The notes: generated from the letters alone by a model not told the origin. Numbered from the stretch's first letter, positions 54,572 to 60,029 are shown. The stretch: DNA of 64,000 bases from an uncultured Enterobacteriaceae bacterium (GCA_964612335.1 CAZTDU010000005.1:20729-84728), one strand, 5' to 3'. Numbers and translations are program-made.

Positions 54572-56119
54572 CTAGCCGTAGCTGGCCAGCTTTTCCACGG
54601 TGTCGATCTTCTTCAGCACCATGTCGGGCGTCACGGGAACGTTGCCGTCGTGCTCGCACTCGACACCGGCGGCGATGTTGCCGAGTATCGAAGCGATCAC
54701 CTCGTTCCTGGTTGCCACGAGCGCGAGCGTGGCGTAGGCCAGCAGCGCGTCGCCCGCGCCTACGGCGTCGACCACGCGCTCGACGAAGCTCTCGATGTTG
54801 AAGAATGCCCGCAGGTCCGACGAGTTCGCGCGATAGGTGATGATCCCCCGGTCGCCGCACTTCAGGATCAGCGTCTTGCATCCGGACTTCTGGTGCAGTT
54901 CCAGCGCGAGCGGCCGAACGACCGAATCCTGGTCGCCGAGCGCGAAGCGCGCCTCGCGCTCGTTCGGCGTAATGAGGTCGAATCCCTGGAACTCCAGGAT
55001 GTTCCCCCAGCGGCTCGCGACCTGGCTGTCTGCCACCCGGAAGGCGCCCGCGGGGATGGCGGCAGTCAACTGCGGGATCGTGCCGCGGTTGAACATGCCA
55101 TGGCGGAAGTCGCTGAACACCACCGCATCCGTCTTCGTGTCGCCGATCTGGCGGCGGATCTGCTCGACGATCTTGTCGGAGATCGAGCGGTTGTCGAGCG
55201 TATCGACCTTAAGCAGGCGGTAACCCTCCGCGACGATCGCGTTCTTGTTGGTCGTCGGTCGCGTCTCGTCGATGATCGGGAGGCAGTGCACGCCGTAGGT
55301 GCTCAGGTCGTCCAGCACGAACGTCTTGTAGTCGTCGTTGCCGAGCACGGTGGAGAACGTCACTTCCGCGCCCGCCGCCTTCAGGTGCTTGGCGACGATT
55401 CCCGCGCCTCCGACAAAGTCGGTCTTGTGGTCGAACCGCACGCTGATGGTCGGCGTCTTGGTCATGCCGCCGATCATCGAGGTATAGGTGTAGCTGTCGA
55501 CGATGGTGTCGCCGACGACGTGGGCGCGCAGGCCCTGCATCTTGCCCAGCGATTCGCGCAAGTCCTTGAATGTGATTCCTTCGGCCTGCATCAGCATCAA
55601 CAGCTTGTCTATGCCGATGTCCGGCGGCGCAAGCTCGATCAGCGCGGAAGACGAGTACACAATGTCCCCGGGCGTGAAGATCATCTCACCGCCGTAGGAT
55701 TCGAGGACCCTGATCTCTTCCTGCGTCTTGGGGTGGACCGCGCCCGCGGTGTACTCGTAGCCCTTGGCAAAGTAGTCAGGCTGGATCAGCGCGAGGTTCT
55801 TCAGCGGCGTGGGATCGTGGTCGACGACCACGTAGTCGACCATCTCGAGCGCCGCGAGGTTGACTGCGCGCAGGTCTTCCGGAACGTAGGGACGCAGGTT
55901 GCCCTTCATGATGTGCCGGTCCGCGGTCAGGCTCGCGACCAGCACGTCTGCCTTGGTTTTGGCGTAGAGCAGGTGCCGCACGTGCCCCGGATGGACGACG
56001 TCGAAGGTGCCGTGGCACATGATGACCCGCCGCTTGCGCGGCCTGGGGCCGATTGCGTCGCGGATATCCTCCGCCGACTTGATCTTGTGGGAGAAGAGAT
56101 GCTTGCTCGCGGGATCCAT
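54572..56119 (-). CDS. Bifunctional sugar-1-phosphate nucleotidyltransferase (N-terminal) / PfkB sugar kinase (C-terminal), HldE-like with inverted domain order
   Basis: Starts at MDPASKHLF. Cytidylyltransferase-fold CHGTFDVVHPGHVRHL at the N-terminus, and a PfkB domain ending with DAVGAGDALLAYATLAL. Confidence 0.8.
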   Translation of the reverse strand: MDPASKHLFSHKIKSAEDIRDAIGPRPRKRRVIMCHGTFDVVHPGHVRHLLYAKTKADVLVASLTADRHIMKGNLRPYVPEDLRAVNLAALEMVDYVVVDHDPTPLKNLALIQPDYFAKGYEYTAGAVHPKTQEEIRVLESYGGEMIFTPGDIVYSSSALIELAPPDIGIDKLLMLMQAEGITFKDLRESLGKMQGLRAHVVGDTIVDSYTYTSMIGGMTKTPTISVRFDHKTDFVGGAGIVAKHLKAAGAEVTFSTVLGNDDYKTFVLDDLSTYGVHCLPIIDETRPTTNKNAIVAEGYRLLKVDTLDNRSISDKIVEQIRRQIGDTKTDAVVFSDFRHGMFNRGTIPQLTAAIPAGAFRVADSQVASRWGNILEFQGFDLITPNEREARFALGDQDSVVRPLALELHQKSGCKTLILKCGDRGIITYRANSSDLRAFFNIESFVERVVDAVGAGDALLAYATLALVATRNEVIASILGNIAAGVECEHDGNVPVTPDMVLKKIDTVEKLASYG

Positions 56120-56121
56120 GG

Positions 56122-57126
56122 TCAGCGGCTCTGCGGGGTAAGGTATTCGAACCAGGTCTTCGTCGCCTTGGCGATCGAGTCCGGATCCCAGAGGGGTGCG
56201 TTCTTCCAGTAGTCGATGTTGGCGACGATCTTCGCCACGCCGTCCTCGAAACTGACCTTGGGCTTCCAGCCGAGCTCGGTGGTGATGCGTGTGATGTCGG
56301 CAAACGTGCACTCGGGCTCGCCGGGGCGCTTCGGGATGTACGTCTTGTCGCCCCCCAGCAGCTCGATCAGCCGGTTTACCGACTGCGGGTTGCCGGCGCC
56401 GAGGTTCCAGAAGCGGCCGACGCGCTCGGTCACCGCGGCGGCAAGGAACGCGCTCGCCACGTCGGTGACGTAGAGGAAGTCGCGCGACTGCGTGCCGTCG
56501 CCAACCACCGTGTAGGGCTTGCCGGCGAGCTTCTGGCGCAGGAACACGCCGAACACCGCGCCGTAGGCGCCCGAGGTGCGCGAGCGCGTGCCGTAGGCGT
56601 TGAAGATGCGCACCGAGTTGACCGGCAGCTTGTACACCTGGTGCCAGTGGAATGCCGCCTGCTCGCCCTGGTACTTCGACAGCGCGTACGGGTACTGCGG
56701 CTGGATCGGGTGGTCCTCGCGCGTGGGCACGCTGGCAAGGCCGTAGCAGGAAGACGACGCGGCGTAGACGAACTTCTCCACGCCGGCGTGCCTCGCGCAT
56801 TCGAGCATGTGCACCGTGCCCTGCACGTTCGCCGACATGTACTCCATCGGCTTCTCGATGGAGGGAACGATGTCGCCGATGCCGGCGAAGTGGAACACGT
56901 ACTTCGCGTCCTTGAACAACGGGTCGCCGGGCTGATAGCTGCGGATGTCGCGCTCCTCGAGCGCGAACCCGGGCGTGGAAGCGTGGTGGGCGACATTCTC
57001 CTTCCTGCCGCCCACCAGGTTGTCCGCCACGCGCACTGCAAACCCGCGCTCGACCAGCAGGTCCACCATGTGGCTGCCGATGAACCCGGCACCGCCGGTG
57101 ACGACGGCGACCGGCCGTGCTGTCAT
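56122..57126 (-). CDS. NAD-dependent nucleotide-sugar epimerase/dehydratase (extended SDR)
   Basis: VAVVTGGAGFIGSHMV, ASSSCYG, YALSKYQGE, and RIFNAYG. Confidence 0.85.
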   Translation of the reverse strand: MTARPVAVVTGGAGFIGSHMVDLLVERGFAVRVADNLVGGRKENVAHHASTPGFALEERDIRSYQPGDPLFKDAKYVFHFAGIGDIVPSIEKPMEYMSANVQGTVHMLECARHAGVEKFVYAASSSCYGLASVPTREDHPIQPQYPYALSKYQGEQAAFHWHQVYKLPVNSVRIFNAYGTRSRTSGAYGAVFGVFLRQKLAGKPYTVVGDGTQSRDFLYVTDVASAFLAAAVTERVGRFWNLGAGNPQSVNRLIELLGGDKTYIPKRPGEPECTFADITRITTELGWKPKVSFEDGVAKIVANIDYWKNAPLWDPDSIAKATKTWFEYLTPQSR

Positions 57127-58893: not shown

Positions 58894-58917
58894 CGTGGAT
58901 CCTGTGGAGGTGTGGAT

Positions 58918-59502
58918 TTATGCGTTGCGCCGCAATATGAGGTCTGCGGCGGCGGGTAGCGATTCTACCGCAACGTACGGTTTTTCGGGTTGTTTTTCCC
59001 GGTAGCCGCAGTCGATGAAGTAGGCGTGGCAGCCGGCGGCGTGGGCTGCGCCGACGTCGCGCCAGCGGTCGCCGACCAGGCTGCTGCGGGCCAGGTCGAT
59101 GCCGTGATCCGCAGCCGCCTTGAGGAGCATTCCCGCCTTCGGTTTCCGACACGCGCAGGCGTCGGCATCGACGTGGTAGCAGACCTCGATGCCGTCTATG
59201 GCGAGTGCTGTGCCGAGGCGATCGTGCATCGCCTCGACGACCTCGCGACGCTGCTTGCCGGTGGCCACGTCCGGCTGGTTGGTGACGACGATGTTCAGGA
59301 AGCCCGCGGCGCGCAGGCGCAGCAGCGCGTCCGCGACGCCGGGAAGGATCTCGAGTTGTTCCACCGAATCCGGTGGATAAGGCTTGCCGTCGCGGACAAC
59401 AGCCCGGTTTATGACCCCGTCGCGGTCGAGGAAGACCGCGCGCCTGCCTACCACTTGGTGGCGATTTGCTGCAGGGCCGGGTGGGAAACGAGGCAATGCC
59501 AC
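58918..59502 (-). CDS. gmhB: HAD-IIIA sugar bisphosphate phosphatase (GmhB-like)
   Basis: AVFLDRDGVIN (DxD nucleophile), VVTNQPDVA, CRKPKAGML, and VGDRWRDV. The start is either ATG 59502 or GTG 59454, which would overlap the gmhA-like stop by 7 nt. Confidence 0.8.
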   Translation of the reverse strand: MALPRFPPGPAANRHQVVGRRAVFLDRDGVINRAVVRDGKPYPPDSVEQLEILPGVADALLRLRAAGFLNIVVTNQPDVATGKQRREVVEAMHDRLGTALAIDGIEVCYHVDADACACRKPKAGMLLKAAADHGIDLARSSLVGDRWRDVGAAHAAGCHAYFIDCGYREKQPEKPYVAVESLPAAADLILRRNA

Positions 59503-60029
59503 ACCACTGCCTGGAAGGCCTCGGTGTGCGGGGTCACGCGCGACGCGTCCACCGTGGGAATCACGACGACGCAGTCGCCGATCTGCTTCGTGTAGCCGCC
59601 GTCGCGCCCGACCACGCCGTAGATCTTCGTGCCGCGTTCCTTCGCCACCTTGAGCCCGGCGACAATGTTGGCGCTGACATTCTTCTCCAGGTTGCCGCCG
59701 CCCACGGAGAAAACGAACACCGCGTCCTTGTCGTTCGCGCGGCTGGTGCGCAACCAGGCCGCGAACACCGTGTCCCAGCCCTCGTCGTTGGTGCGCGCGG
59801 TGAGTTCAGAGACGTTGTCGGTGGGTGCGTAGGCCTCGATGCCGCACAACTTGCGGAAGTCGTTCACCGCGTGCGTGCAATTGCCCGCACTGCCACCGAC
59901 GCCGAGCAGGAACAGGCGCCCGCCGCGCTCGCGCAGTGCGGCGAGTTCGCCGGCCAGTTTCTCGATCGCCGCGATGTCGATCGACTCGGCAACCTTCACC
60001 ACTTCCTTGAAGTACGTCTGCGTGTGCAT
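59448..60029 (-). CDS. gmhA: SIS-domain sugar-phosphate isomerase (divergent GmhA family)
   Basis: Starts at MHTQTYF. GRLFLLGVGGSAGNCTHAVNDF, VFVFSVGGG, AKERGTKIYGVVGRDGG, and TEAFQAVVWH align by eye with E. coli GmhA blocks, but with substitutions. Confidence 0.8.
   Translation of the reverse strand: MHTQTYFKEVVKVAESIDIAAIEKLAGELAALRERGGRLFLLGVGGSAGNCTHAVNDFRKLCGIEAYAPTDNVSELTARTNDEGWDTVFAAWLRTSRANDKDAVFVFSVGGGNLEKNVSANIVAGLKVAKERGTKIYGVVGRDGGYTKQIGDCVVVIPTVDASRVTPHTEAFQAVVWHCLVSHPALQQIATKW

Follow-up and report, generated by a model that had tools for sequence, protein, structure and literature searches.

The window analysed here is a stretch of 64,000 nucleotides (nt) from an uncultured Enterobacteriaceae bacterium (GCA_964612335.1 CAZTDU010000005.1:20729-84728), with a G+C content of about 69% and with glycan genes over the whole 64 kb, an ABC-transporter ATPase gene among them. 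Open reading frame (ORF) calls and profile searches located six minus-strand ORFs between positions 54572 and 60029, and the families matched were those that a sequence-only reading of this block had claimed. The unit to which these genes belong is bigger than the six-gene block; it extends past 54572 to 51483 and includes genes at 42637-45320. In order, it encodes a SIS isomerase, a HAD-IIIA phosphatase, a transaldolase, two extended short-chain dehydrogenases/reductases (SDR 1 and SDR 2) and a nucleotidyltransferase-kinase fusion of reversed domain order (genes 1-6), followed by a Gfo/Idh/MocA oxidoreductase, a UDP-glucose-dehydrogenase-like protein, an RmlD-like SDR (SDR 3) and a methyltransferase (genes 7-10). 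A split transketolase is a frequent accessory after the cassette methyltransferase. The block belongs to a ten-gene cassette that has spread horizontally and exists in hundreds of copies, and is not unique to the window. The catalytic motifs of the proteins of the six-gene block are invariant or nearly so across 62-86 homologues, and the block therefore consists of working genes, not of chance ORFs.

One genome per species was scanned with the fusion protein, a relative of which was encoded in 421 species genomes. The best 80 of these 421 loci were retrieved, and the window proteins were mapped onto 81 non-redundant loci, many of the incomplete loci being cut by contig ends. All nine core genes (SIS to SDR 3) were present in 43 of the 81 loci, and 36 of these 43 were co-linear on a single strand within 9.5 kb. 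The gene order is kept over at least six phyla, with identities of 64-90%, and the same order was found independently, from gene calls with Pfam families, in an acidobacterial metagenome-assembled genome (MAG) and in a Gallionella MAG. Ten genes ordered alike across phyla are therefore not chance neighbours. The loci belong to Alpha-, Beta-, Gamma- and Deltaproteobacteria, Acidobacteriota, Verrucomicrobiota, Chloroflexota (SAR202), Planctomycetota and Bdellovibrionota. Most relatives of the cassette at 64-74% identity to the window copy come from Alphaproteobacteria, and cultured carriers include Azospirillum, Tardiphaga, Bradyrhizobium, Skermanella and Sulfidibacter, none of which is known to be a pathogen; the fusion protein also has thousands of metagenomic relatives at 81-90% identity. 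When a cultured carrier with a known glycan was sought among plasmids, only a Solidesulfovibrio plasmid matched, with a relative of 32% identity and a different gene context. In this locus (Solidesulfovibrio carbinolicus plasmid pDCAR1, 11986-15067), the neighbours of the reversed nucleotidyltransferase-kinase fusion are a SIS gene, a NeuB-like synthase gene, pseudaminic-acid genes, a split transketolase and three radical S-adenosylmethionine (SAM) genes, and the locus represents a second, more distant context of the reversed-fusion architecture.

The first gene of the cassette (59448..60029, minus strand) encodes a SIS-domain ketose/aldose phosphate isomerase of a divergent GmhA-like type. 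Only GmhA-type models were matched (PF13580, E-value 2e-09), and the score against the GmhA equivalog TIGR00441 was 51.5 bits, the cut-off being 209, which agrees with the divergence claimed at first reading. The solved relatives found were all GmhA phosphoheptose isomerases, with E-values of 3e-13 or weaker. His53, Asp57 and His178 are invariant in 62 homologues; the position of Asp57 is presumably Glu in Escherichia coli GmhA (compared by eye). The loop SVGGG-x4-VS-x-N is conserved and appeared, in the same comparison by eye, longer than the phosphate-binding loop of E. coli GmhA.

The second gene (58918..59502, minus strand) encodes a HAD-IIIA sugar-bisphosphate phosphatase of the GmhB-like type, as had been proposed, with 130 bits for TIGR01656 (cut-off 84) and 81 bits for TIGR01662 (cut-off 45). 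Regarding the GmhB models, the score was 117.6 bits for the beta-type NF006506 (cut-off 178) and 68 bits for the alpha-type NF050049 (cut-off 250), so that the protein lies below the cut-off of the beta-type model but scores higher there than with the alpha-type. The DRDG motif, which contains the DxD nucleophile, is present in all 58 homologues covering it. The true start of the gene is probably near 59454, because the homologues are 170-180 amino acids (aa) long and starting at the GTG of 59502 gives an overlap of 55 nt with the SIS gene.

The sixth gene (54572..56119, minus strand) encodes a protein of 515 residues in which a nucleotidyltransferase domain (CTP_transf_like, PF01467, residues 35-160) and a PfkB kinase domain (PF00294, residues 201-492) lie in one chain, which bears out the fusion read from the sequence. 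The domain order is the reverse of that in HldE, where the kinase is N-terminal and the transferase C-terminal. The score against the HldE model NF008454 was 152.3 bits, below the cut-off of 521, and those against rfaE domain I and domain II were 135 bits (cut-off 345) and 89 bits (cut-off 181.5), respectively. Among solved structures, the kinase half is closest to HldA 4e84 and the transferase half to 5x9q, which we take to be Burkholderia HldC. The motifs HxGH and GAGD457 are invariant in 86 homologues, and VYSSS is found in the window protein where the promiscuity motif (F/L)xxGRSTT has its Arg (alignment by eye). The matches of the front-end proteins to solved relatives (GmhA, 4e84 and 5x9q) are distant, with E-values of 1e-13 to 1e-14. 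Judged from these matches, the front end is a divergent ADP-heptose-type route. Heptose nucleotidyltransferases have been summarised in three architectures by Tang and colleagues (PMC11573728), and the reversed fusion is not among them.

The third gene (58159..58893, minus strand) encodes a short transaldolase (PF00923) of 244 residues. It was assigned to TIGR02134 ('transald_staph') with 362.7 bits, above the cut-off of 282, residues 5-238 corresponding to positions 2-235 of the 236-position profile. We take TIGR02134 to be a transaldolase family defined on Staphylococcus and Coxiella. The Fsa/TalC type suggested at first had to be abandoned, as TIGR00875 gave only 67.7 bits (cut-off 246) and TIGR02134 was passed instead. 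Asp14, Glu67, Lys93, Asn119, Ser145, Phe147 and Arg150 are invariant in 63 homologues. Lys93 is the Schiff-base Lys, and Glu67 and Phe147 match Glu60 and Phe132 of the Thermoplasma transaldolase (positions compared by eye), for which the structure entries name the variants E60Q/F132Y and K86A; the Gln/Tyr combination is the aldolase-like variant. Because of the Glu/Phe signature, together with Lys93 and Asp14, the protein is predicted to be a true transaldolase requiring a ketose donor and an aldose acceptor. A role as an Fsa-type aldolase was ruled out by the same signature, which is not Gln/Tyr. The predicted structure (predicted local distance difference test score 81) matches short decameric transaldolases at 24-30% identity. 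The entry 9ui2, suspected at first when Lmb structures were sought, is the Thermus thermophilus transaldolase.

The transaldolase gene is present in 51 of the 60 loci with enough upstream sequence, and across the loci its product and the fusion protein vary in parallel in their identity to the window copies; the gene is a co-inherited part of the cassette. In six otherwise intact cassettes (L035, L047, L048, L054, L055 and L084) it is missing, and the SIS and HAD genes abut the gene for SDR 1. The whole SIS-HAD-transaldolase module is absent upstream in four further loci (L031, L032, L037 and L056). These absences fit a precursor that ordinary cell metabolism can also supply.

SDR 1 (57123..58130) and SDR 2 (56122..57126), both encoded on the minus strand, had been read as extended SDR epimerases/dehydratases. 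The assignment to the extended SDRs stands, whereas the dehydratase part does not, as the SSS-x-YG motifs lack the D/E pair of 4,6-dehydratases (by eye); 4,6-dehydration by SDR 1 or SDR 2 was rejected, since both carry epimerase/dehydrogenase-type motifs. The best sequence match of SDR 1 is 6vo6/6vo8 (E-value 3e-35), the next being ten orders weaker (3e-25). The same entries, which are Cj1427, the Campylobacter C4-dehydrogenase of GDP-D-glycero-D-manno-heptose, solved with this heptose bound, are also the best fold match (31% identity, template modelling score 0.79-0.86), and the motifs YxxxK and SSSSVYG are conserved. SDR 2 is 4-epimerase-like by its solved relatives and motifs; its best solved relatives are UDP-hexose, UDP-GlcNAc and UDP-GlcA 4-epimerases and UDP-xylose synthase (UXS), and its motifs AASSSCYG and YxxxK are invariant in 80 homologues. 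It scored 107 bits with the ADP-heptose 6-epimerase model (cut-off 275).

The gene for the Gfo/Idh/MocA oxidoreductase (53632..54555, minus strand; PF22725, PF01408, PF02894) directly follows the fusion gene in 75 of the 81 loci. Its EKP motif is invariant, and its nearest solved relatives, all of them weak matches (E-value 1e-12 or worse), include inositol dehydrogenases, a glucuronide 3-dehydrogenase and DgpA-type enzymes. The next gene (52349..53635, minus strand) encodes a nucleotide-sugar-dehydrogenase-like protein that passes TIGR03026 (206.4 bits, cut-off 189.8) and contains all three Pfam domains of the family. When it was aligned to the UDP-glucose dehydrogenases (UGDH) 4a7p and 3gg2, GGSCFPKD was found replaced by AGGNLERD, so that the nucleophile Cys of the GGxCxxKD motif is Asn. 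Asn occupies this position in all 78 locus homologues, and an exhaustive search found no Cys in any of the 121 nearest full-length cluster representatives, down to 33% identity (Asn in 102, His in 13, other residues in the rest). By the established UGDH mechanism, the second oxidation, which yields the uronic acid, depends on the thiol nucleophile and should fail in its absence. With the catalytic Cys replaced by Asn, the protein probably makes no uronic acid. Formation of a uronic acid followed by decarboxylation was rejected on two grounds: the nucleophile Cys is absent, and a UXS-type decarboxylation of a heptopyranuronate would need a ring ketone at C5.

The clade without the catalytic Cys (representatives P0246-P0395) is large and diverse, and its members are annotated as 'UDPglucose 6-dehydrogenase'. 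In one representative (P0284, 719 aa, on a single 3.7-kb Logan contig) a Gfo/Idh/MocA domain is fused to the Cys-less dehydrogenase-like domain, and in another (P0358, 722 aa) this domain is fused to a classical short-chain dehydrogenase. Both fusions could be gene-calling artefacts, and P0284, coming from one short contig, is only a hint that the adjacent Gfo/Idh/MocA and dehydrogenase-like proteins act together. SDR 3 (51483..52355, minus strand; PF01370, PF04321) is RmlD/Fcl-like with a non-canonical catalytic motif. It reads HGVMH at the SDR motif YxxxK; all 71 homologues have His at the Lys position, and at the Tyr position 39 of them have His and 32 have Tyr.

The tenth gene (44385..45320, minus strand) encodes a class I SAM methyltransferase (Methyltransf_11/25), and its true start is probably near 45100. 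Its product is 68% identical to the methyltransferase encoded directly after the Gallionella cassette, and a homologue lies within the retrieved stretch in 59 of the 81 loci, mostly directly after the nine genes. The genes that come after it vary. A split transketolase follows in 22 loci, and is present in the window (42637..44372, minus strand; N half 43548-44372, Transketolase_N; C half 42637-43551, Transket_pyr and Transketolase_C), and an aminotransferase in 7 loci, with at least 59% identity to the Gallionella copy. A pair of acetolactate-synthase-like thiamine diphosphate (ThDP) enzymes follows the cassette in 5 loci; the two enzymes, together with a DJ-1/PfpI protein and a second HAD protein, replace the transketolase in L001/L002 (10465-15188), L024, L028 and L030, with acidobacterial, deltaproteobacterial and Chloroflexota hosts. 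This variant suggests a different carbon-branching decoration.

In the window, SDR 3 is separated from the methyltransferase and the transketolase by a six-gene insertion (45109-51469, minus strand). This tailoring block encodes, by Pfam matches, a GLF-like flavin mutase, a TylF-type methyltransferase, a radical SAM/SPASM protein, an O-methyltransferase and a GDSL protein (46385-47488), as well as a 438-aa protein with no match to a Pfam family. The insertion is specific to the window and is absent in the closest locus (L006), whose methyltransferase gene lies immediately next to the cassette. Genes of the same types occur among the loci (mutase in 7, O-methyltransferase in 6, radical SAM in 3, TylF-type methyltransferase in 2). 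The GLF-like mutase suggests a furanose form of the sugar.

By published annotation, the cassette appears to correspond to the O-antigen module cbu0674-cbu0683 of Coxiella burnetii, an organism that is not among the best 80 of the 421 loci with a relative of the fusion protein. The product of cbu0678 has been described as homologous to HldE, with its domains in an unconventional, reversed arrangement and with Asp455 in the active site (Beare et al. 2018, PMC5843353); the corresponding Asp of the window protein is residue 457. The gene lies in an operon with the SDR genes cbu0676 and cbu0677 and near cbu0674, annotated as 'phosphoheptose isomerase' (PMC5843353), so that, comparing published annotations with the window order, both clusters have a phosphoheptose-isomerase gene and two SDR genes upstream of a reversed nucleotidyltransferase-kinase fusion. 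Downstream, cbu0681 (a weak SDR) and cbu0683 (a methyltransferase) fit the order of the cassette. The two clusters differ in that the Coxiella cluster continues with genes for GDP-mannose-derived sugars and the window has its own inserted block of mutase, radical SAM enzyme and methyltransferases. Truncation of cbu0678 abolishes phase I lipopolysaccharide (LPS), and a wild-type copy restores it, while the canonical HldE, cbu1655, is intact (PMC5843353); because phase I LPS is lost although cbu1655 is intact, the two products are not interchangeable. According to a 2026 preprint the 'precise role remains unclear' for cbu0678, a 2026 review lists it by homology only (PMC13252051, PMC13552124), and its acquisition from Alphaproteobacteria by horizontal transfer has been reported (2026 preprint; PMC13252051, PMC13552124).

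The reading preferred here, which is held with about even confidence, is that the ten-gene cassette makes a nucleotide-activated, modified higher-carbon sugar for an O-antigen or capsule of the ABC-transporter type, starting from sedoheptulose-7-phosphate. The transaldolase would raise the supply of the ketose phosphate, most likely sedoheptulose-7-phosphate formed from fructose-6-phosphate and erythrose-4-phosphate, and isomerisation of the ketose phosphate by the SIS enzyme would give the aldose 7-phosphate. Phosphorylation at O-1 would then fall to the PfkB half of the fusion protein (giving the beta anomer, as with HldA), the HAD-IIIA enzyme would take off the terminal phosphate and the N-terminal half of the fusion protein would form the nucleoside diphosphate (NDP) sugar. 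SDR 1 would oxidise C4 in the manner of Cj1427, and SDR 2 would epimerise. The Gfo/Idh/MocA enzyme and the Cys-less dehydrogenase-like protein may work together, with the exocyclic chain or C3 as their target, the candidate chemistry being a two-electron oxidation or a dehydration and not the formation of a uronic acid. SDR 3 would reduce a keto group and the methyltransferase would methylate the product. The variable genes would diversify this product, in the window by means of the transketolase, the pyranose-furanose mutase, the radical SAM enzyme and the further methyltransferases. The front end of this scheme is proposed by homology and the back end from motifs and nearest relatives. On this reading, an ordinary ADP-D-glycero-D-manno-heptose would not be the product.

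That the sugar is a heptose derivative is suggested, with the same evenly balanced confidence, by the HldE-type kinase and transferase, by SDR 1, which is nearest to Cj1427 in both sequence and fold, by the separability of front and back end, and by the placement of the transaldolase in a family that contains the ordinary housekeeping enzyme of Staphylococcus. Several points weigh against the scheme. We infer the carbon number, the nucleotide and the final product alike, and the correspondence to Coxiella rests on published annotations. Sedoheptulose-7-phosphate is an ordinary metabolite, and a transaldolase kept in 85% of the loci is not obviously needed to supply it; genomes that have no front-end genes beside the cassette could contain them at another place. 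The scores of the SIS, HAD and fusion proteins lie far below the GmhA, GmhB and HldE equivalog cut-offs, and we know of no heptose pathway that pairs a Gfo/Idh/MocA enzyme with a Cys-less dehydrogenase-like protein. Regarding the sequence-only reading, its core survives, namely a pathway from a sugar phosphate to an NDP-sugar with an embedded transaldolase, which is co-inherited in 51 of 60 loci; it had overlooked the four extra conserved genes, the wide spread and the Coxiella link.

A different starting sugar is possible but judged less likely: the transaldolase would join a C3 unit to ribose-5-phosphate, giving octulose-8-phosphate, which the isomerase, kinase, phosphatase and nucleotidyltransferase would convert to a beta-NDP-octose, followed by exocyclic processing like that of the lincosamides. 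The epimerase-type SDRs and the Gfo/dehydrogenase-like pair would carry out an exocyclic epimerisation and a 6,8-dehydration to an 8-deoxy-6-keto-octose, to be reduced by SDR 3, or transaminated where an aminotransferase is present, and then methylated. The lincomycin set comprises the transaldolase LmbR, the isomerase LmbN, the phosphatase LmbK, the kinase LmbP and the guanylyltransferase LmbO, together with the epimerase LmbM, the dehydrogenase LmbL, the oxidoreductase LmbZ and the aminotransferase LmbS, and GDP-octose is converted to GDP-lincosamide by LmbM, LmbL, CcbZ and CcbS (PMC4351081, PMC12945683). By these activity lists the cassette has a counterpart for every Lmb activity, the aminotransferase being found in 7 loci, and the parallel is thus stronger than that drawn originally from five activities. 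Co-inheritance of the transaldolase, although sedoheptulose-7-phosphate is an ordinary metabolite, also speaks for an octose, as do the strong divergence of the cassette enzymes from the canonical heptose enzymes and the failure of the canonical HldE to substitute for cbu0678 in Coxiella. The dehydrogenase-like protein without the standard uronic-acid mechanism has a Gfo/Idh/MocA partner, to which it is fused in P0284, and this pair has no role in known heptose pathways. By chemical inference, an alpha,gamma-dehydration needs three exocyclic carbons, which an octopyranose has and a heptopyranose does not.

However, the kinase and the nucleotidyltransferase are HldE-type here, whereas LmbP is a GHMP kinase and LmbO an RmlA-type enzyme, which yield an alpha-GDP sugar. 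An octose is further disfavoured by the kinship of SDR 1 with the heptose enzyme Cj1427, by the membership of the transaldolase in the family of the ordinary Staphylococcus enzyme, and by its absence from six intact cassettes and that of the whole front end from four loci. To our knowledge, no octose besides Kdo and Ko has been reported in bacterial polysaccharides. The parallel is also weakened in that the membership of LmbL in the UDP-glucose-dehydrogenase family and of LmbZ in Gfo/Idh/MocA, as well as their joint action in the 6,8-dehydration, is presumed; the open lincomycin literature mentioning LmbL does not give its family, and LmbR, LmbN, LmbL and LmbZ have no entry in the PDB. Still more tentative is the wider proposal in which the lincosamide sugar pathway has, in the cassette, a counterpart widespread among Gram-negative bacteria, and in which a beta-NDP-octose, formed from ribose-5-phosphate with the cassette's own transaldolase, would undergo exocyclic dehydration or oxidation and then extension to C9 or C10. 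The extension, as doubtful as the proposal itself, would be due to the split transketolase found in a quarter of the loci, including the window, adding two carbons to the resulting carbonyl.

It is very improbable that the cassette serves a branched 6-deoxyhexose of the virenose type (3-C-methyl), as assumed in the Coxiella literature, and not a higher-carbon sugar. Reviews call cbu0678 essential for virenose production, and the methyltransferase cbu0683 has been proposed as the virenose C-methylase, a methyltransferase being the tenth gene of the cassette. Yet the link is a phenotype, in which the full-length O-antigen is lost, and not a chemical assignment, and the proposed route from GDP-mannose via Gmd (cbu0689) needs no ketose-phosphate isomerase, anomeric kinase or bisphosphate phosphatase. 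Known NDP-sugar C-methyltransferases belong to a family different from that of the cassette enzyme, which is a generic class I methyltransferase (Methyltransf_11/25). The cassette occurs in more than 400 species, whereas virenose is described as rare outside Coxiella; a literature search for virenose together with sedoheptulose gave no match. Equally improbable is a redundant supply of a standard ADP-D,D- or ADP-L,D-manno-heptose with the transaldolase and the downstream oxidoreductases as unrelated neighbours, for although the cassette has the four activities of the ADP-heptose front end and SDR 2 weakly matches the ADP-heptose 6-epimerase model, the ten genes keep their order across phyla, the scores against the GmhA, GmhB, HldE and HldD equivalogs reach only a quarter to two-thirds of the cut-offs, and an intact canonical HldE does not rescue the cbu0678 truncation in Coxiella.

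The phase variation that attenuates the agent of Q fever repeatedly strikes cbu0678, and in Coxiella the proposed pathway of the cassette would underlie a virulence factor. The presence of the cassette in hundreds of bacteria, including cultured ones, opens the question to study outside a risk-group-3 organism. Should the octose reading be true, octoses other than Kdo, or longer sugars, would be common but overlooked in environmental O-antigens and capsules and in the phase I LPS of Coxiella, and the origin of the lincosamide sugar pathway would become visible. The cassette also contains two unexplored enzyme types, a nucleotide-sugar-dehydrogenase-like clade with Asn or His for Cys and an RmlD-like SDR with His for the catalytic Lys. 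The automatic names of the products are 'transaldolase', 'UDP-glucose 6-dehydrogenase' and 'ADP-heptose synthase', of which at least the second is probably wrong.

On the other side of the cassette, genes for an EamA-family transporter and a NUDIX hydrolase (60060-61605, plus strand) occupy the opposite strand between the cassette and rmlACD. L004, L006, L007 and several other loci likewise have a NUDIX gene beside the cassette, and its product may be an NDP-sugar hydrolase. Positions 1-42000 of the window are occupied by further polysaccharide genes. These encode ManC (5293-6717), a GT2 glycosyltransferase (9472-10419), a B12-binding radical SAM protein (10424-12391), two DUF268 proteins (15154-17777, in a stretch of lower G+C, 0.64), two further GDSL proteins (17792-19084 and 21868-23124), a carbamoyltransferase (28756-30591) and the ABC ATPase (39870-40664). 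An FkbM methyltransferase, two further SDRs and several large ORFs with no Pfam match are also located in this part.

Compared with known systems, the front end of the cassette resembles the ADP-heptose route in its SIS isomerase, PfkB anomeric kinase, cytidylyltransferase-fold nucleotidyltransferase and HAD-IIIA phosphatase. It differs from that route in the reversed fusion, the embedded transaldolase and the co-conservation of five further redox enzymes and a methyltransferase, and the Coxiella module is not interchangeable with the canonical HldE of the ADP-heptose route. Regarding the modification of the capsular GDP-heptose in Campylobacter jejuni, in which epimerases and C4-reductases act after Cj1427, its sequence of C4 oxidation, rearrangement and reduction by a second SDR fits SDR 1 and SDR 3. 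The Campylobacter route, however, relies on a GHMP kinase and an RmlA-type transferase, which yield its alpha-GDP-heptose, and on cupin epimerases, none of these enzymes being found in the cassette, and Campylobacter lacks the pair of Gfo/Idh/MocA and dehydrogenase-like proteins. The lincosamide pathway is similar, by activity lists, in that a transaldolase comes first and an epimerase, a dehydrogenase, an oxidoreductase and an optional aminotransferase act after nucleotide activation; it differs in that the transaldolase of the cassette belongs to the TIGR02134 clade and in that the cassette lies in the context of a Gram-negative surface polysaccharide and not of an actinomycete antibiotic. 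Relative to the nucleotide-heptose and octose pathways, the cassette is a variant marked by the reversed fusion, the dedicated transaldolase and the two non-canonical redox enzymes.

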